Source: Methanopyrus kandleri AV19
GTDB taxonomy: Archaea > JAADCQ01 > Methanopyri > Methanopyrales > Methanopyraceae
Assembly: GCF_000007185.1 (NCBI RefSeq)
Contig: NC_003551.1
Coordinates: 630,001 to 662,000, forward strand
DNA: 32,000 nucleotides
Direction of reading: 5' to 3'
The notes beneath the pieces are model-generated. The model saw only the letters and a program-made list of their open reading frames with translations, searched no databases and was not told the origin of the DNA. The translations under genes and the position numbers were made by a program. Of the stretch, positions 6,060-32,000 are shown one piece after another; the first letter of the stretch is position 1, and each line of letters opens with the position of its first letter.

Positions 6060-9000
6060 TTACCCGCCGTAGTCCTCGATGTAGTCCTCCGGCTTCGGGG
6101 GCTCCGGCTTCAGACCCTTCCTCTCCCGGATCTCCCGAATGATCTGCTCCTCCAGCTCCTCGGGCACGCGCTCGTAGCCGGCGTGCTCGGTGGTCCAGAT
6201 CGCGCGACCCTCGGTGGCCGATCGGATGTCGTTCGCGAATCCGAACATCTCGGCCACGGGTGCCTTACCCTTGATGATGACGGTATCTCCCTCCTGCTGG
6301 ATCTCCTCGATAGTACCTCTACGTCCCTGTATCTCCTTGGTCACGGCACCCATGTAGTCCTGCGGTACGGTCACGTAGATGTACTGCATCGGCTCGAGCA
6401 GGTGCGTGTCGGCCAGCAGCATGCCGCCGTAGATCGCGCGCTTGATCGCCGGGATCACCTGAGCCGGACCTCGGTGTACGGGGTCCTCGTGGATCTCGGC
6501 GTCCACGAGGCTGACCTTCACTCCTCGGCACGGCTCCTTCGCCAGCGGACCCTCCTCCATGGCCTCCTCGAAGCCTTCGATCAGCAGCTCCATCACCTCG
6601 TTCAGGTACTGCAGACCCACGGTCTTGTCCAGGAAGAAGTTCGTACCCTTGACGGTCTCGACGGCCTTCGCGTCGTCCCGGTCCATACCGTACTCCATCA
6701 GCGTCTCCTCGAGCTCCTTCTTGCTCATCTCCTCCGGGTTGAACTTGCCCTCCTCGATGGCCTCCACGATCTCCTCCTCGACGGGCTCCACCGTCACGTA
6801 GAACTTGTTGTGCTTGTTCGGAGACTTGCCCTCGACCTCATCGTCACAGACTCCGAACACGCCCTCTCGGTACACCACGATCGGCTCCGAGACCTTGATG
6901 TCCACACCGCGCTCCTTGATCCTGTGGGCGATGATCTCTAGGTGCAGCTCGCCCATACCGGAGACCAGGTGCTGTCCGGTCTCCTCGTTGATCTCGACCT
7001 TGACCGTCGGGTCCTCCTTCGCGATCTGGTGCAGGATCTCGATCAGCTTGGGCAGGTCCTGCGTGTTCTTAGCCTCGACGGCCACGGTGACTACGGGCTC
7101 GGCGAAGTGCTGCAGCTCCTCGAACGGCTCGATCGGATCCTCCGGGTCGGTCACGGTCTCACCGGCCCACACGTCGCGCAGGCCGGTCACGGCCGCTATG
7201 TTACCCGCCGGCACCTCGTCCGTGCGGATACGGTCCGGTCCCATGTAGATACCTACCTGCTGCACTCGGGTCTCCTTCTTGGAGCTCGCCAGGTACACCT
7301 GCTGACCCTCGCGGATCGTACCGGAATATACCCGGCCCGTCGCCACCTCACCCGCGTGCTCGTCGATCCGGACGTCCGTCACGACCATGGCCAGCTTGCC
7401 GTTCGGGTCGCACTTCCTCAGCGTCTTACCGTCCTCGCTCTCCGGATCACCCGGCCAGATCTGCTCGATACGGTACTCCTGCGCCGTGACCGGGTCCGGG
7501 AGATGCTTGACCACCATGTCCAGCACTACCTGGTACACGGGAGCCTCCTGGGCCAGCTCCTTCTGCTTGTCCTGCTGACAGTACTCGATGATGTCCTTGA
7601 ACGTGATCCCGGTCTTCTCCATGAACGGGAAGCTGATACCCCAACCGTAGTACGCGCTTCCGAACGCCACGGAACCGTCCTCGACGCTCACCTTCCACTC
7701 GTCCTTGAACTCCTCGGGCGCCATCTGCTCGATCATCTTGTTGACCTCGGAGATGATCTCCAGGAACCGGTTCTGCATCTCCTCCGGGCTCAGCTTCAGC
7801 TCGTTGATCAGTCTGTCTACCTTGTTGATGTACAGTACCGGCCTCACGCGCTCTCGGAGAGCCTGCCGGAGCACGGTTTCCGTCTGTGGCATCACACCTT
7901 CGACCGCGCATACGACCACGATCGCGCCGTCCACGGCTCGCATGGCCCGGGTCACGTCACCCGAGAAGTCCACGTGACCGGGGGTGTCGATGAGGTTGAT
8001 CAGGTACTCCTCGCCCTCATACTCGTGCACCATGCTGACGTTCGCGGCGTCGATCGTGATACCTCGCTCCTGCTCCATCTCGTCGAAGTCCAGCACGAGT
8101 TGATCTCCGGCCAGCTCCTCCGAGATCATCCCGGCGCCGGCCAACAGCTGGTCGGATAACGTCGTGTTGTGCACCACGAACCCTTCGGCGGCGAAGTTGT
8201 GATGCTCTTCGACCGTGAAGTCGTACACGTAACCGTCGTACTCGACCTCCTCGACGCGTACCACCTCCAGGAAGCAGACGTCGTCCCTGGCGAGCGCCTT
8301 CAACCTCTCGAGTGCCTCACCCTCGACCCCGACCGCCTCCAGGGTGCTGATCACCTTCTCGAGGCTCGACTTAGTCAGGCCCACCTGGCCACCCTCGTAG
8401 TTCGAGTAACAGTTGAACATCCTCGTGGTTGGGACGTCACCGCGAACTTCCCGAAGGATTTCCCCGCTGATCGGTACCTTCTCGAGCTCCGAGGACGACG
8501 CCTTCTCCATCAGTTTCTTCAGCTTCTCCGCCTTCTCGGGCTCCCGGAAGCCCGGGAACCTCTCGAGCGACCGGGCGCCCGACACGTACAGGGTGTAGGC
8601 ACCGTCTCCCTCCCTGAGGTAGCTGGCCACGTCGAACTTCTGCAGGAGCAACTGGAGATCTTCCAGGAACTCCCGGCTCACGGAAGTCACCGATACCGCG
8701 CTCCGACCCTCCTCGACGGTACCGTCCGCGTCGAAGTACCCGCGGATGAACTCGGCGATGCAGTCCAACGGTGCCCTGGTCAGGAAGTCGTTGACCCGGA
8801 TCCTGTGGGCCTTCTTCCTCCTCGGGTAGTCGAAGAGTGCCTCCAGGATCCTCGGGACGGTCTCCGGGAAGTCAATCCGCGCGGTCTTGCCCTCATACCT
8901 TCGGACTCGGACCTCCAGACCCATGTCGCTCGCGATCCGCTTTACCTCCCCCTGAATGGCTTCGGACCCGTTGGTGAGCTGGTTCCAGCACCCGTCACCG

Positions 9001-9833
9001 AACATGAGACCCGCCAGGTAGAACAGATCCTCCGGCTCGGGCAGTCGGATGGGCTTCGTCGACTTGGTGTTCGACCGGTAGGAGACCTCGACGGCGTCGT
9101 AGAGGTCCGCCAGGTCCAGACCCAGCTCTTCCGCCAGGTCGACGAGGATATCGGCTCGAATCCGTCCCTTTCTCAGCTGGTAGTAGAACGAGTTTTCCTC
9201 GATGTCCACCTCCAGCGTCTCCCATAGCGCCTTGATTCCGCGCTCCTTGGCCAGCTCGAGAACGCTCTCCGCCTCCTCTTCCGGCAGGTGGACGAAGAAG
9301 TCCCTGCCGAGCCTGCGGAACACCTCGCGCTTGAGCTCCTCCTCGCTCATCCCTTCGTGGACCAGCTTCTGGGTGCACACGATGTAATCTCCGATCTCCA
9401 GCTCGTCGGCCCTCTTCTCGACGATCTCACCCGAGGGATCCAGGACGAGGAACTTGTGCTCCGGCGTCGTACGGATGCTCCTACCGTTCTTCACCTCGAC
9501 CTCCACGAGCTTGTCCGCCTTCAGGCGCCACACGTGAGTTATCTTGCCTTCCACGATCTCTACGGCGTCCTTGTCCAGCGAGGATACTCCGACGGGCTCT
9601 CTTAGCTCGTAGACCTCTTCACTCTCATCGCACTTCACGAGTCTGCCGCGCTCTTTCAGCTCCTCGAACAACTCGTCCGCTCGGACGAACCGGCCGTCTG
9701 CTAGGCAGATCTTGGTCTCGGGAGCCACACACTTACCGTGGTCTATATGGGCGATGATACCGATATTACGGATCTTCCCCGGCTCGGTCATTAGTTTGCG
9801 GCACTTCTCGGCCATCTTCTCCTTACGACCCAA
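6060..9833 (-). CDS. fusA: Translation elongation factor 2 (aEF-2) precursor interrupted by an intein; the mature protein would be 735 aa
   Basis: The N-terminus [15 protein letters not shown]...[14 protein letters not shown] and the continuation [20 protein letters not shown] rebuild the canonical G1 P-loop. The DTPGHVDF and NKVD GTPase motifs are present, as is the diphthamide region [11 protein letters not shown]. The TTG start at 9833 is supported by conservation of the MGR(K/R)..M N-terminus that I recall in other archaeal EF-2 proteins. Confidence 0.95.
8166..9731 (-). mobile_element. Intein (522 aa) with a LAGLIDADG homing-endonuclease domain, inserted between K34 and T557 of the aEF-2 P-loop
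   Basis: It starts with Cys ([13 protein letters not shown], block A) and ends with VVHN followed by a +1 Thr. Two LAGLIDADG motifs are present: [12 protein letters not shown] and [12 protein letters not shown]. Removing it restores GHIDHGK|TTLSD. Coordinates were computed from the reading frame as residues 35-556. Confidence 0.92.
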
Positions 9834-27625: not shown

Positions 27626-27703
27626 TGGCGCCCCGGCCGGGATTTGAACCCGGGTCCCGGGCTCGACAGGCCCGGATGATAGACCGGGCTACACCGCCGG
27701 GGC
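27626..27703 (-). tRNA. tRNA-Asp (anticodon GUC) with encoded CCA and a C at position 8
   Basis: Hand-folded cloverleaf:
- Acceptor stem GCCCCGG/CCGGGGC.
- Anticodon stem CGGGC/GCCCG with loop CUGUCGA.
- T arm CCGGG-TTCAAAT-CCCGG.
- Discriminator G followed by CCA.
- The D stem is weak (GUGU/UCAU).
- Position 8 is C rather than the universal U. Confidence 0.93.
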
Positions 27704-27735: not shown

Positions 27736-27752
27736 CCAATTATAAACTTTAC
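27736..27752 (-). promoter_or_regulatory. TATA box / BRE for tRNA-Asp
   Basis: The minus strand reads GTAAAGTTTATAATTGGGG. The TTTATAAT element is centred about 39 nt upstream of the mature tRNA 5' end. That fits a transcription start about 25 nt downstream of the TATA and a short leader removed by RNase P. It abuts the stop codon of the upstream pilin-like gene. Confidence 0.65.
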
Positions 27753-28219
27753 TCCTTAGTCCTCTCCACGACCACCTTGATCGACTCGCCTCCGCTGACT
27801 TCCACCTGATAGTTCGCCCACGACCCCTTCACGGGGTTCGAGATCTCGCTGACCGACTTCGGCCGCCCGTACAGCGCCACGTAAACCTGCAGCAACACGT
27901 TACGCCTCAGCAGATCCACGACGCCCGCGGGATTATCTCCGGAGTACTTGAGCTCGTATTCGATCCTGTCATCGTTCACCTGGCACCTCACCACCGACAG
28001 GTTTCCCGAGATCTCTACCTCCTGATCTCCTACCCGATAGGTGACGCCCACAGCCACCTGCTCCCGGGTCTTCGCGACGGCATCGCTCACAGCCTTCTTC
28101 ACGCAGTACCACTCGTACTCGGGCCCCATGTACCGGCCCGCGATGAACGCCGCAGTCAGCACGATGATGGACAACAGTACGAACTCCACCGACACCTGAC
28201 CGAACGTGCGCGCGCCCAT
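27749..28219 (-). CDS. Type IV pilin-like protein with a class III signal peptide (156 aa)
   Basis: The N-terminus is MGARTFG|QVSVEFVLLSIIVLTAAFIA. It has the prepilin-peptidase-type G|Q site, Glu at +5 and a hydrophobic helix (DUF361-like QxSxEF motif). One N-x-S/T sequon is present (NLS). Confidence 0.8.
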   Translation of the reverse strand: MGARTFGQVSVEFVLLSIIVLTAAFIAGRYMGPEYEWYCVKKAVSDAVAKTREQVAVGVTYRVGDQEVEISGNLSVVRCQVNDDRIEYELKYSGDNPAGVVDLLRRNVLLQVYVALYGRPKSVSEISNPVKGSWANYQVEVSGGESIKVVVERTKE

Positions 28220-28226
28220 CGGGGGC

Positions 28227-28802
28227 TCAGCCCCCGGGTGGTATCACGTACAGGCCGAACTCGAACGGCTTGCCCGAGGTCGAAACCCACCATTCGTCAC
28301 CCGGAGGCCACTCCGTCACGGGCGTGGGTACCGGATCGTCCACTGTCCTCGGATCTATCAGGACAACTCCCGGGGTTCTGGGCGGCCACCCGCCGGATGG
28401 CCACCCGACCAGGATCGGTACGCTAGCCGTAACTCCCACCTTCTTCTCAAACCGACCACCGAGCCGCAGGATCACCACGATCTCGCCCGGACCACCGGGC
28501 TCACCCTTCACCCGGACCTTGAGGTAGTACTCGCTGTTCCCTATTTTTTCCGGCAGGTGTATCTGGTTCGCTGTGCTCTGCCAGTCAGGGAGCCAGCTGA
28601 TCGTACCGGCGATCGCGTTGGCGACGTAGTTCGCGATGTACCGGGCCTCGATCAACGCCATCACGTCCGACACTCCGAGGAACGTGCCCACCACCGAGTA
28701 CGTGAAGTACGCACTGAGGACCAACATGATGAGGAGCAACGCCGCGAACTCTATCGTGACCTGGCCACTAGGCGTTGCGGAGAACCAGCTTCGGACCCTC
28801 AA
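28227..28802 (-). CDS. Type IV pilin-like protein with a class III signal peptide (191 aa)
   Basis: The N-terminus is (M)RVRSWFSATPSG|QVTIEFAALLLIMLVL. The TTG start overlaps the upstream pilin-like gene by 35 nt. The C-terminal half is Pro/Trp/Gly-rich. Confidence 0.75.
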   Translation of the reverse strand: MRVRSWFSATPSGQVTIEFAALLLIMLVLSAYFTYSVVGTFLGVSDVMALIEARYIANYVANAIAGTISWLPDWQSTANQIHLPEKIGNSEYYLKVRVKGEPGGPGEIVVILRLGGRFEKKVGVTASVPILVGWPSGGWPPRTPGVVLIDPRTVDDPVPTPVTEWPPGDEWWVSTSGKPFEFGLYVIPPGG

Positions 28803-29211
28803 CGACGCTCACCTCCACGACCCCGGGTACCGTCACGTTCTCAACCACCACGTCCTTTCCGAACGAGTAGAACTTTGCGACGCCTTTAACGCCGTTACCC
28901 TCCACGATCACGTAGTACTCGTCGTGCTGCCCGGTCGGTTCCACACTCACCGTGTAGCTCCCTTGGGTACCGGGTCTACCCTTGATCCTGACGGTGAACC
29001 TTGTCCCGACGTCGCACGCGGCGGCCTTGTCGAGCACCCTGGCCAGCTGCTCAGCCATCGCCTTCGCCTCGAGGGCGGACGCGGCCTCCTCGACACCGCC
29101 TGAACCGTACATACCTTCCTTCACGAACGCCATCGCCATACCGACGGCGGTAACCCCTATCAGTAGAACCAGGAGGTACTCCAGTGAGGCCTGACCGCGG
29201 GAGAAACTCAT
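28768..29211 (-). CDS. Type IV pilin-like protein with a class III signal peptide (147 aa)
   Basis: The start is taken at MSFSRG|QASLEYLLVLLIGVTAVGMA (ATG 29211), a textbook short charged leader plus RGQ site plus Glu+5. The tracked longer ORF (to 29250) adds 13 residues that would bury the signal peptide. Confidence 0.8.
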   Translation of the reverse strand: MSFSRGQASLEYLLVLLIGVTAVGMAMAFVKEGMYGSGGVEEAASALEAKAMAEQLARVLDKAAACDVGTRFTVRIKGRPGTQGSYTVSVEPTGQHDEYYVIVEGNGVKGVAKFYSFGKDVVVENVTVPGVVEVSVVEGPKLVLRNA

Positions 29212-29235
29212 AAACAAAGTCGGGTAACCCCCAGT

Positions 29236-31821
29236 GTGGGGTTGTACCACAAGTTGCCCCTCTTAAAGGAGCGTGGCCAGGTGTTCACTCTGGACGCGAT
29301 GGCGGCGCTCTTGCTCTCCTTAGTGCTAGTGTCCTTAGCTTTGGATTATATTCATATGGTTAGCTGGCCTACCATCTCGCCTCGTCAGGAGGTCTCCTCG
29401 ATCGCCGTCGTCCAGCCCGTGAAGTGGGGATGGGTAGCCACCGGCGTGTACAGGGGCGAGCTCCCGCACCTGGAAGTCAAGGAGATCCGTGTCACGGATT
29501 GGAACGTAAATGGCAATAAGTGGACCGCGAAGGTCGACGTTTCGGATAAACTCCCACCGGACAAGAAGATCGTGATGGCGTTCCTGGTTCTCATGGTCGG
29601 AGACAACCACGTCGTCGACGCTTACGACCCGAACGATAAAGATCTAGGTGTGTACGTCGAGGTGAACGGTGACGAGAACGGTGAACGCGTGTTCCCGACG
29701 GTCCCGATCGACTGGAGGGGCAACATAGGGTGGTGGTTCCCCTACAACTACAACGGTCGTATATGGGAGAAAACCCTGGTCGACCTCACCGTGGACGATC
29801 GGGGCAACCCACTGCTCGTTAACAAAACCTCGGACGACAACATCAGAGTGCGGATTGGCGTCAAAATTCGAGGTTACTGGGGCAGACAATACAGGGATAA
29901 AACACGGATAGTACTCGTGCTCGCCCCGAAGCAGTTCGACGTCGCCGTCCAAGTCTGGCGTCCGGACGGCCCTCAGATCGGCCCACAGCCGTACGATGAC
30001 CGCGATGGTAAGACTGGAATACCGGTCAAAGGCTCCCTAGCGACTGATCTCAGCAGGAACAAGAACCCTGACCCTGTCACGAACTTCGCCGACTGGTACG
30101 GGGAAGATGTGGACAAAGATCGGCTGGAAAATCCTGACGAGAACCCCGTAATCACCGTCAAAGACCTGGTTATGAGAATAGGTAGGGTCTTTGGTAACTG
30201 GAGACCGTGGACTCCGGTGGGAACCGGTCCTTACCGTGAGTATTACGATAAAAGTGATGGAACCGTCCACAAACTGGAGGACGCGAAAGACCCGAACGGT
30301 GACGGGGCCGATGGTATAGTCCTGACGCGTCACGGTGCTCAGATCGACGATTCGTACCATCTGTTCGCGGCGTACGTGATGATGCCCAGGACGTTCTCGT
30401 CTGTATGTCCGCTGGACGCTCCGATACTCGCGTTAACAACACAGCGTAACGGTCCCCCCGAGTTCGTAGTGTACGCTAACGTCAGAACCCCCCAAGATAT
30501 AGCGAAGATCGACTGGGCTAACGTGGACGAGTCGTTAGGAGCGTCCAACATAGGAACGAACACCACCTACAGATGGAATAAGACTGAGGACCTTGACTTC
30601 TACAATGACGAGCTGAAGTACTACAAGTACTACGATGACTGGTACTCGAGGAGCATAGGCATTCCGGCCGATTACCTCTACGGTGCTTCGGGATACAGCC
30701 ACCTGGTCGTGATCGACCCCGAAGCTCAGTGGCCCATTACTCCCGCAGGAGGATTGATAGGCACATCGTCGACGGTCGAGCAGGTGCTGAGGACGCACAG
30801 TGTCCTGTATGCGTATCTGAGGTTACCGAACAGGAGTCACGGAGTGCACACGCACTTCAACTACGACACCACTCATGGTTACTACTGGTACTTCAAGTTC
30901 CCCGGCGGCATTCCCGTTCAGGGAGGCCCTCAGCCCCGTATCGTGGCCATCTGGATTAAGGCGCCCCACTGGCTCTACCAGTGGGCTCCGTGGGCCGACT
31001 CCGTGAGCGCATCGCTTGGATTCGCCAATACCAGGTTCAATAACGTCCCCGGTGACGGCCGCAGCGACGAGCTCGATATGACCATCAACATCCAGAGGCC
31101 CCCCGACATGCCTTCGGTGATCAAGAACTGGGCAGTTCAGGACGTGTACATGTTCGGCAACCTGGACGAGGATCCCGACAACTTCTGGATCTACATCGAT
31201 GATGAGGAGGTCTGGCCCGACGATTGGGTTCCCCCGTCGATCGAGGACCTGAAGTCGCTCTCCGGTGGTAAGATCGCCACTCCGGGAACCCACACGATCA
31301 GGGTCAGGGAGTACGAGCAACCGTCTCCTGAGGCCGTCGAAATCGGTCCGTTCAACGTCCTAGTCCTGTACAAGGGCACCATGTACCTGTACCTCCCCCG
31401 CCTCAAGAGGAGCAAGGAGGACGCCGTGAACGCTCTCAGGCAGGAGTTCGAGAGACTGGGGATCGACCCGGACGATCCCAGGGTCAGGATTACGGTCGCG
31501 CCGTCTCGGGGTTACGACAAGCCCCACAAGTTCAGACTCGTAGCCTGGCAGGAAGAACGCGTACTGTACACACCTGAGTATCTCCGACGGCTATCGACCG
31601 AAGCCCTCTCTCAGCTGCAGTCCTCGGGTGCCCTCAGCTACGTGGCCATGGAGTGGGAGTACTACCAGGACACGGGAGACGCAACGAAGCTGCGTCGGGC
31701 CCTGCAATCGTTACAGCCATTGCTGAGCTCCGTCCTGGGAGTGCACTTCAAGCTGGAGGTCTGGGACGAGAAGAACAAGCAGTGGGTGACGCTGCTCACG
31801 GATCAGGGTCCAGCGATTTAA
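29236..31821 (+). CDS. Giant (861 aa) class III signal-peptide protein of unknown function; candidate pilus-associated adhesin or large minor pilin
   Basis: The N-terminus is ...LLKERG|QVFTLDAMAALLLSLVLVSLAL (RGQ site plus hydrophobic helix, Asp at +6). The rest has no motif I recognise. It is very rich in Trp (about 31 by my count), Tyr, Asn and Asp. It has four N-x-S/T sequons and Ca-binding-like DxDxDG loops (DDRDGKTG and DPNGDGADG). The start is GTG 29236 or TTG 29254. Confidence 0.8.
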   Translation: MGLYHKLPLLKERGQVFTLDAMAALLLSLVLVSLALDYIHMVSWPTISPRQEVSSIAVVQPVKWGWVATGVYRGELPHLEVKEIRVTDWNVNGNKWTAKVDVSDKLPPDKKIVMAFLVLMVGDNHVVDAYDPNDKDLGVYVEVNGDENGERVFPTVPIDWRGNIGWWFPYNYNGRIWEKTLVDLTVDDRGNPLLVNKTSDDNIRVRIGVKIRGYWGRQYRDKTRIVLVLAPKQFDVAVQVWRPDGPQIGPQPYDDRDGKTGIPVKGSLATDLSRNKNPDPVTNFADWYGEDVDKDRLENPDENPVITVKDLVMRIGRVFGNWRPWTPVGTGPYREYYDKSDGTVHKLEDAKDPNGDGADGIVLTRHGAQIDDSYHLFAAYVMMPRTFSSVCPLDAPILALTTQRNGPPEFVVYANVRTPQDIAKIDWANVDESLGASNIGTNTTYRWNKTEDLDFYNDELKYYKYYDDWYSRSIGIPADYLYGASGYSHLVVIDPEAQWPITPAGGLIGTSSTVEQVLRTHSVLYAYLRLPNRSHGVHTHFNYDTTHGYYWYFKFPGGIPVQGGPQPRIVAIWIKAPHWLYQWAPWADSVSASLGFANTRFNNVPGDGRSDELDMTINIQRPPDMPSVIKNWAVQDVYMFGNLDEDPDNFWIYIDDEEVWPDDWVPPSIEDLKSLSGGKIATPGTHTIRVREYEQPSPEAVEIGPFNVLVLYKGTMYLYLPRLKRSKEDAVNALRQEFERLGIDPDDPRVRITVAPSRGYDKPHKFRLVAWQEERVLYTPEYLRRLSTEALSQLQSSGALSYVAMEWEYYQDTGDATKLRRALQSLQPLLSSVLGVHFKLEVWDEKNKQWVTLLTDQGPAI

Positions 31822-31960
31822 AAGCCTGCGGACCATACCTCGTAACCGAGCGCCCCGACCCCGTGAATCCGAGCTCGGTAAGGAGATCACCGCCGCGTCG
31901 TGGCTTGCTCGTGGGAAACCTCGCGTCTTCGAGGTCAGCTAACAAAGGTGAAGGTGTGTG

Positions 31961-32000
31961 TTAGGGCCACACCCGGATGACTCTGCCGTTCTTCAGCACC
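31961..32000 (-). CDS. 3' end of an unidentified minus-strand gene that runs off the right edge
   Basis: An open frame ends ...VLKNGRVIRVWP followed by TAA at 31961-31963. Only 12 codons are visible, so no function can be assigned. Confidence 0.3.
   Translation of the reverse strand, partial: VLKNGRVIRVWP

Follow-up and report, generated by a model that had tools for sequence, protein, structure and literature searches.

Four adjacent genes at the end of a 32,000-nucleotide (nt) stretch of the Methanopyrus kandleri AV19 genome (contig NC_003551.1, forward-strand positions 630,001 to 662,000; hereafter the window, whose own numbering is used) probably make up the distal end of the only type IV pilus cluster of this archaeon, one of the Epd-like ("Clade 1", EppA-dependent) type. 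On our best reading, the three small proteins encoded there are minor pilins, and the fourth, of 855 amino acids (aa), is a pilin-anchored tip subunit. Comparative genomics had already recorded this kind of system in M. kandleri, to which the four genes add new, lineage-specific members. Not found in the literature consulted are the explicit class III reading of the four proteins, the view of their ectodomains as orphan families confined to Methanopyraceae, and the likening of the 855-aa subunit, in which Glu+5 is missing, to tip subunits of the GspK type.

Four adjacent genes share a class III signal module

A sequence-only reading of the window had described four open reading frames (ORFs) with a common G|Q module (the bar marks the predicted cleavage site). 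The ORFs are present, and their motifs FG|QVSVE, SG|QVTIE, RG|QASLE and RG|QVFTLD were verified. The three small genes, each encoding a candidate minor pilin, lie on the minus strand. The 156-aa gene (27749–28219) encodes the 7-aa leader MGARTFG followed by QVSVEFVLL; its signal module, made up of the leader, the G|Q site, Glu+5 and a hydrophobic helix, covers residues 1–31 (28127–28219). The 191-aa gene (28227–28802) has a 13-aa leader ending in SG, followed by QVTIEFAALLL, and its module covers residues 1–40 (28683–28802). The third small gene, 149 aa in the public annotation (28768–29217), has a leader ending in MSFSRG, followed by QASLEYLLVLL, with the module in residues 1–35 (29113–29217). 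The large gene (855 aa, 29254–31821) is on the plus strand, opposite to all other genes of the cluster described below. Its product, a candidate pilin-anchored tip subunit or adhesin, starts with the leader MPLLKERG followed by QVFTLDAMAALLLSLVLVSLAL and carries a class III-like module in residues 1–32 (29254–29349). The coordinates also bear out the reported arrangement: the 3' end of the third small gene shares 35 nt (28768–28802) with the 191-aa gene, the 191-aa and 156-aa genes are 7 nt apart (28220–28226), and the large gene is divergent.

The longest ORFs at the locus occupy 27749–28219 (156 aa), 28227–28802 (191 aa) and 28768–29250 (160 aa) on the minus strand and 29236–31821 (861 aa) on the plus strand, and two of the sizes originally given, 861 and 160 aa, required correction of the start. 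In a homology search the large product was 100% identical to a hypothetical protein of M. kandleri; because this public protein has 855 aa, the gene starts at the TTG at 29254 and not at 29236. The third small gene has its public start at 29217, and the ATG at 29211 would yield MSFSRG|Q and a protein of 147 aa; a 160-aa product starting at 29250 is unlikely because its 19-aa leader would be atypical and is not conserved. With these starts, the leaders of the 156-aa, 191-aa, third small and 855-aa proteins measure 7, 13, 6–8 and 8 aa, respectively. All four end in Gly at −1 and are followed by Gln+1, which is invariant across all orthologues.

The module singles out these genes within the window. 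A six-frame translation of the 32 kb contains 23 G-Q-x3-4-[DE] sites, only four of which are followed by a hydrophobic 18-residue segment (mean Kyte-Doolittle hydropathy 1.97–2.31; next best 0.51). These four are exactly the four reported genes, each with the site no more than 20 residues from the ORF start. Consistently, hydropathy analysis showed a single hydrophobic segment in each protein, N-terminal and directly after the site.

Substrates of EppA carry a 5–13-aa leader ending in Gly, then Gln+1, Glu+5 and a QxSxExxxL motif (DUF361, now PF04021; PMC2910488, PMC3875500). The 156-aa protein displays this motif exactly (QVSVEFVLL). Glu+5 is likewise present in the 191-aa protein, where Thr replaces the Ser (QVTIEFAAL), and in the third small protein, where Val replaces the final Leu (QASLEYLLV). 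The 855-aa protein (QVFTLD) has Gln+1, Leu+5 and Asp+6, departs from QxSxE and, alone among the four, lacks Glu+5. The PF04021 search proposed with the sequence-only reading gave a graded outcome: the 156-aa protein passed the gathering cut-off (33.4 against 23.7 bits), whereas the third small protein (17.1 bits in its 160/147-aa forms) and the 191-aa protein (12.1 bits) remained below it, and the 855-aa protein had no PF04021 match, nor any Pfam or NCBIfam family at E ≤ 1. An orthologue of the 191-aa protein (P0007) does have a precomputed PF04021 match. A reading of the N-termini as EppA/DUF361-type archaeal class III signal peptides (type IV prepilin-like) is thus a supported prediction for all four proteins, given the agreement of Gln+1 and Glu+5 with the EppA rule, the PF04021 match of the 156-aa protein and the pilin-shaped model of the 191-aa protein described below.

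A conserved pilus cluster extends past the window edge

The surroundings were examined on public contigs that encode the same large protein, with flanks of 10 kb (window coordinate = coordinate on contig L001 + 19253). The locus had been described as compact; it is only about the distal third of a cluster of ~14.4 kb, reaching in window-equivalent numbering from 27749 to ~42130. The earlier observation that the window holds no ATPase, platform or peptidase gene is true. However, the flank beyond position 32000, where a search had been recommended, contains an EppA-like peptidase gene, two platform genes and an ATPase gene, 3–10 kb past the window end and with only cluster genes between. A stand-alone reading therefore fails, and the "missing machine" is an artefact of the window edge.

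Convergent with the large gene, across a gap of 139 nt, lies a 565-aa gene on the minus strand (L001 12708–14405), which is cut by the window end so that only its last 13 codons and stop fall inside (31961–32000). Its product begins with RGERG|FLFTP, followed by a hydrophobic helix, and its orthologues begin with RRERG|FIFTP and RRERG|LVFTP. Beyond it, also on the minus strand, come a gene for a 304-aa protein (MRG|QITVDA), three tiny prepilin genes (SG|QVSVEW, SG|QANIEL and RG|QGGVEY), a 324-aa peptidase gene with Peptidase_A24 (65 bits) and Arc_PepC domains, a 332-aa gene (L001 16838–17836, window-equivalent 36091–37089) and three more tiny prepilin genes, of 62–83 aa, sharing xG|QGG[IV]EYL[IL]LIAA. 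Two platform genes of 331 and 424 aa, with one T2SSF domain (PF00482) each, then adjoin the gene for a 598-aa secretion ATPase (T2SSE). The 332-aa gene, which separates the peptidase gene from tiny pilin genes, has no class III motif and no Pfam or NCBIfam match; within the cluster it is a conserved gene, 341 aa long in L004. On the ATPase side, an Mg-chelatase-like AAA gene followed by housekeeping genes marks the far cluster boundary.

Eight class III-type genes (G|Q in seven, G|F in one) are found past the large gene in contigs L001, L003, L004 and L005, bringing the cluster total to 12, six of at most 83 aa and six larger. The gene order, including the inverted large gene, is common to two further Methanopyraceae lineages whose proteins are 50–60% identical. 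The same conservation of minus-strand frames and motifs at 50–60% identity ruled out that the ORFs are spurious products of high-G+C DNA, in which antisense ORFs are numerous. A profile search of genome contigs with the ATPase alignment picked up Methanopyrus-specific N-terminal patterns and returned no Methanococcales or Thermococcales loci.

Several cluster genes merit separate mention. In all three lineages the 565-aa protein begins with RERG|[FL]-x-FTP and a hydrophobic helix, a class III-like start without Gln+1 and the acidic residue; it has the string ERG-x-x-FT in common with the 855-aa protein and otherwise no similarity to it (BLASTP E = 0.41). One of the tiny prepilin genes, of 83 aa (L001 17901–18152, window-equivalent 37154–37405, minus strand; AEG|QGGVEYLILIAA; PF04021 20.4 bits), is absent from the public annotation, which calls a 50-aa ORF on the opposite strand there; it adds a third paralogue to the tiny candidate major pilins. 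The Mg-chelatase-like AAA+ gene (601 aa; L007 8105–9910, plus strand of that contig) stops 12 nt short of the pilus ATPase gene, shares its strand and may be co-transcribed with the cluster.

The cluster resembles Epd-like, Clade 1 type IV pilus systems

Clade 1 archaeal type IV pili occur in methanococci, methanobacteria, M. kandleri and thermococci (Makarova et al. 2016, PMC4858521). Their parts are one ATPase, two TadC proteins, major pilins of ~70 aa, at least five minor pilins and EppA, a peptidase with nine transmembrane segments (arCOG02300), together with two large proposed tip adhesins that contain DUF2341 and for which an analogy with PilY1 was proposed (PMC4858521). For M. kandleri the same study lists exactly one secretion ATPase, of 602 aa (arCOG01819, Clade 1; Table S3, PMC4858521); because it is the only one listed for the genome, we infer that the 598-aa ATPase of the cluster is this entry. 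The hallmarks of the Epd-like clade, according to Denise et al. 2019 (PMC6668835), are two platform genes of one domain each together with very short major pilins, and that study traces bacterial Tad pili to an Epd-like archaeal ancestor. The cluster shows both features: the platform genes are adjacent and carry one T2SSF domain each, and its six class III proteins of at most 83 aa and six larger ones agree with short major pilins and at least five minor pilins. Additionally, the peptidase has NCBIfam EppA as its best match, aligned over the full length (36 bits against a cut-off of 450 bits), contains ~8–9 hydrophobic segments by a crude hydropathy count, and gave no match to FlaK with phmmer.

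The cluster shares with the Epd system of Methanococcus maripaludis leaders of 5–13 aa that end in Gly and are followed by Gln+1 and, in the small proteins, Glu+5; a pair of platform genes, both with a single T2SSF domain; an A24 peptidase of its own, apparently of the long form; an ATPase assigned to Clade 1; and several larger class III proteins. The candidate major pilins have 62–83 aa here and 74 aa in M. maripaludis, and the three proteins of 147–191 aa fall in or near the size class of EpdA, EpdB and EpdC (130–156 aa), the likeness to these three being confined to size class and signal type. The two systems differ in that the genes form one cluster of ~14 kb in M. kandleri but at least four loci in M. 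maripaludis (PMC3875500), that the M. kandleri cluster has no FleN/MinD or FlaH-like ATPase, and that the globular domains of the four proteins have no detectable homologues in Methanococcales or Thermococcales. The split TadB/TadC platform, very short major pilins and CpaF-family ATPase also recall bacterial Tad/Flp (type IVc) pili; unlike those, the cluster has no secretin, no TadZ and no Flp motif, and its peptidase is of the long archaeal form with Arc_PepC.

The N-terminal modules are conserved whereas the globular parts appear lineage-specific

Within Methanopyraceae, the RG|Q site with its acidic residue is invariant or nearly so in each orthologue set. Orthologues of the 156-aa protein (55–59% identity) keep RG|Q[VI]S[VT]EF, those of the 191-aa protein (55–60% identity) keep the same start and RG|QVTLEF, and those of the third small protein (52–54% identity) read RG|QVTVEY. 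In the 855-aa protein, R7, G8, Q9, F11, T12, L13, D14 and A15 are invariant in five homologues, down to 50% identity. The absence of Lys or Arg at −2 from two of the four sites, reported previously, is accurate for this strain but not general: distant Methanopyraceae orthologues read R-G|Q at all four, and only the M. kandleri strain group lacks the Arg.

The three small proteins resemble one another in the N-terminal module only (17–55 columns by hhalign), which fits distinct minor pilins and not copies of one major subunit. Searches with profiles of the 191-aa and 147-aa families found no homologues outside Methanopyrus/Methanopyraceae and, beyond the N-terminal module, no homology of these two families to EpdA, EpdB or EpdC (arCOG05055, arCOG05053 and arCOG06584). 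A profile of the 855-aa protein run against 1.84 billion representative proteins retrieved only Methanopyrus sequences and one relative of 623 aa (P0006). The latter shares RRGQVFTLDA and N-terminal and C-terminal regions of ~230 residues each with the 855-aa protein and lacks the ~390-residue middle. It is encoded by a stand-alone gene (L006 10001–11872) in another archaeal metagenome-assembled genome (GCA_054046225.1), where its neighbours are genes for an aldehyde dehydrogenase and for HcyBio and the 10 kb around it contain no pilus genes. Collectively, these comparisons are best read as indicating that the globular parts of the four proteins are orphan families confined to Methanopyraceae.

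Two further features of the large gene were observed. Residues 346–355 of its product (30289–30318, plus strand) read DPNGDGxDGI, invariant in all five Methanopyrus homologues, and this loop has a DxNxDxxD pattern resembling calcium-binding loops; the tip protein PilY1 carries a Ca site. In addition, across 29001–32000 the large gene has a G+C fraction of 0.55–0.60, against mostly 0.60–0.68 elsewhere in the window; this lower G+C and the opposite strand could reflect amino-acid composition or a separate origin.

Structure predictions

The AlphaFold2 model of the 191-aa protein (predicted local distance difference test score (pLDDT) 79.4, predicted template modelling score 0.67) contains a helix of ~58 residues (12–70) followed by an antiparallel β-sheet, and the protein is accordingly predicted to have the canonical pilin shape. 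The top neighbours of the model in a Foldseek search of the PDB were the GspI-type minor pseudopilins EpsI and XcpV (E 0.26–0.46, not significant). Nothing useful emerged when each of the four families was searched as a profile against PDB sequences; the N-terminal helix region of the third small protein matched the filament subunit 8fk7_A weakly (E = 0.012). For the 855-aa protein, the fold search with a poor model gave only ConA-like jelly-roll matches, none significant. A fold assignment from its PDB matches (BMP9 prodomain, ConA lectins and FedF lectin) was rejected in view of E values of at least 0.02, a root mean square deviation of ~14 Å and the quality of the model.

Proposed assembly and roles

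We infer cleavage, incorporation into a filament and a tip location for the four proteins, as follows. The N-terminal hydrophobic helix would insert each precursor into the membrane, where the EppA-like aspartic peptidase of the cluster would cut the 6–13-residue leader after the conserved Gly and expose Gln+1. Mature subunits would then be extracted from the membrane and built into a helical filament by the ATPase together with the two TadB/TadC-like platform proteins of one domain each. The shaft would probably consist of the tiny QGG[IV]EYL pilins (62–83 aa) encoded beside the platform genes. The proteins of 147–191 aa would be minor pilins of low abundance that prime assembly or cap the filament, and the 855-aa protein, a prepilin module joined to a large orphan ectodomain, would be the first subunit, at the tip, and likely an adhesin. 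EpdA, EpdB and EpdC are essential for piliation in M. maripaludis (PMC4858521, PMC3875500). The specific arrangement of the four proteins in a tip complex is a tentative proposal, to which we give somewhat less than an even chance.

The set resembles bacterial GspH-I-J-K and PilVWX-PilY1 in that a few small, dissimilar pilin-like proteins are encoded together with one much larger protein, and it shares with GspH-I-J-K-type complexes the absence of the otherwise conserved Glu5 from the largest member. In bacteria, the first subunit GspK is the largest and lacks Glu5, since there is no subunit above it to pair with. By functional analogy, the 855-aa protein may play a GspK/PilY1-type tip role. 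The likeness has its limits: the sequences are not homologous, neither a secretin nor an outer membrane exists in the archaeal system, and PilY1, unlike the 855-aa protein with its prepilin module, is not a pilin. A type IV pilin N-terminal module joined to a bulky displayed domain is also found in PilB and PilC of Streptococcus sanguinis, which are far smaller than the 847 aa of the mature 855-aa product; the latter is moreover archaeal and has no recognised binding domain. The S. sanguinis minor-pilin complex is reported to bind glycans.

A number of points weigh against the assignment to an Epd-like pilus or against the roles proposed. The peptidase lies far below the EppA equivalog cut-off and, at 36 bits, is very divergent from EppA. 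DUF2341 was not detected in the 855-aa protein (Pfam, E ≤ 1) or in the 565-aa and 304-aa proteins, which matched no Pfam family at E ≤ 0.1. The globular parts appear to have no relatives outside Methanopyraceae, and orthology with EpdA, EpdB and EpdC is thus unsupported by sequence. Cleavage of the 855-aa protein appears less certain than that of the others, because it has Asp+6 and not Glu+5 and no PF04021 match. Its AlphaFold2 model, from an alignment of five sequences, is unusable (pLDDT 38.8), and its tip location is suggested by analogy. The minor-pseudopilin matches of the 191-aa model may be taken only as a hint, and the roles given to all four proteins are predictions.

Alternative explanations

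The class III signal might serve only in membrane anchoring and export, the 855-aa protein, and perhaps the 565-aa protein, being associated with the cell surface or S-layer in the manner of the Sulfolobus bindosome sugar-binding proteins. This would account for the Leu+5 and Asp+6, the missing PF04021 match and the huge orphan ectodomain of the 855-aa protein, for the 565-aa neighbour having neither Gln+1 nor an acidic residue, and for the isolated 623-aa relative in a different archaeal genome, whose neighbourhood contains no pilus genes. Moreover, arCOG03508 and arCOG03512 are labelled surface/S-layer-like in a supplementary table of Makarova et al. (PMC4858521). On the other hand, RGQ-FTLD is invariant in all homologues, the 623-aa relative included, which argues for selection on a cleavage and assembly module rather than on a mere membrane anchor, and the 855-aa gene holds its cluster position in all Methanopyraceae contigs. 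The bacterial tip subunit GspK, too, is the largest of its set and lacks Glu5. We therefore consider surface display alone quite improbable.

A second alternative concerns what the filament is for. M. kandleri is reported to have no arl genes, yet it has been described as motile with polar tufts, a discrepancy listed as unresolved in a 2021 review (PMC10117864), and Table S3 of Makarova et al. lists a single secretion ATPase for the genome, of Clade 1 and equated here with that of the cluster. The cluster, the four genes included, could thus build the polar "flagella" tufts and replace the missing archaellum. Against this, no archaellins and no homologues of ArlH/FlaH, ArlI, ArlJ, ArlCDE/X or ArlF/G were seen in the cluster; the ATPase falls outside the archaellum clade in the literature and scores 331 bits against a FlaI cut-off of 550 bits; the candidate major subunits are Flp/Tad-sized and not archaellin-like; and the Epd pili of M. 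maripaludis serve attachment (PMC6668835). We consider such a replacement very unlikely, and the four genes would encode accessory parts under either reading. Polar tufts as such are compatible with the assembly proposed above; rotation-based motility is unlikely because no archaellum-specific parts were seen in the cluster.

A broader possibility, which we rate as unlikely though less so than either alternative above, is that, if the reported lack of archaellum genes and the single type IV filament ATPase hold, this one cluster builds the polar tufts: an Epd/Tad-like pilus would have assumed the part of the polar appendage, and conceivably of motility, at ~100 °C, with the lineage-specific 855-aa protein representing a new class of giant pilin-fused tip proteins. 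The importance of the wider cluster is that it offers the one obvious origin for the filaments observed on M. kandleri, in which archaellum genes are reported to be missing. Two things make the four genes of interest: a giant pilin-fused protein in which no domain is recognised, and their link to the filament puzzle of M. kandleri. Epd-like systems have also been proposed as the archaeal ancestors of bacterial Tad pili (PMC6668835).

Hardly credible, finally, is the satellite cassette, its pilins supplied to a machine from elsewhere in the genome, that the sequence-only reading had put forward because the 32-kb window itself has no ATPase, platform or peptidase gene: it is refuted because these genes follow 3–10 kb further on the same contig, within one cluster whose order is conserved in lineages only 50% identical. 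The other suggestion of that reading, an uncharacterised surface filament, is not supported, the system type being already catalogued for M. kandleri (PMC4858521).

Other features of the window

The rest of the window holds archaeal housekeeping genes, among them those for an rRNA methyltransferase, Rio kinase, TruD, EF-2 with an intein, S7, S12, NusA, RNA polymerase A'/A'' and a split B subunit, and it also encodes Rad50-Mre11-HerA-NurA. The EF-2 gene (6060–9833, minus strand; 1257 aa in total) is split by an intein (Intein_splicing, residues 44–556), which carries a homing-endonuclease domain of the LAGLIDADG type. A tRNA-Asp (GTC) gene at 27626–27703 on the minus strand directly adjoins the first prepilin gene and narrowly passes the Rfam tRNA threshold (29.3 against 29 bits). 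Its position 8, read on the reverse complement, is C, where U is usual; Methanopyrus tRNAs are known for C8-to-U8 editing.

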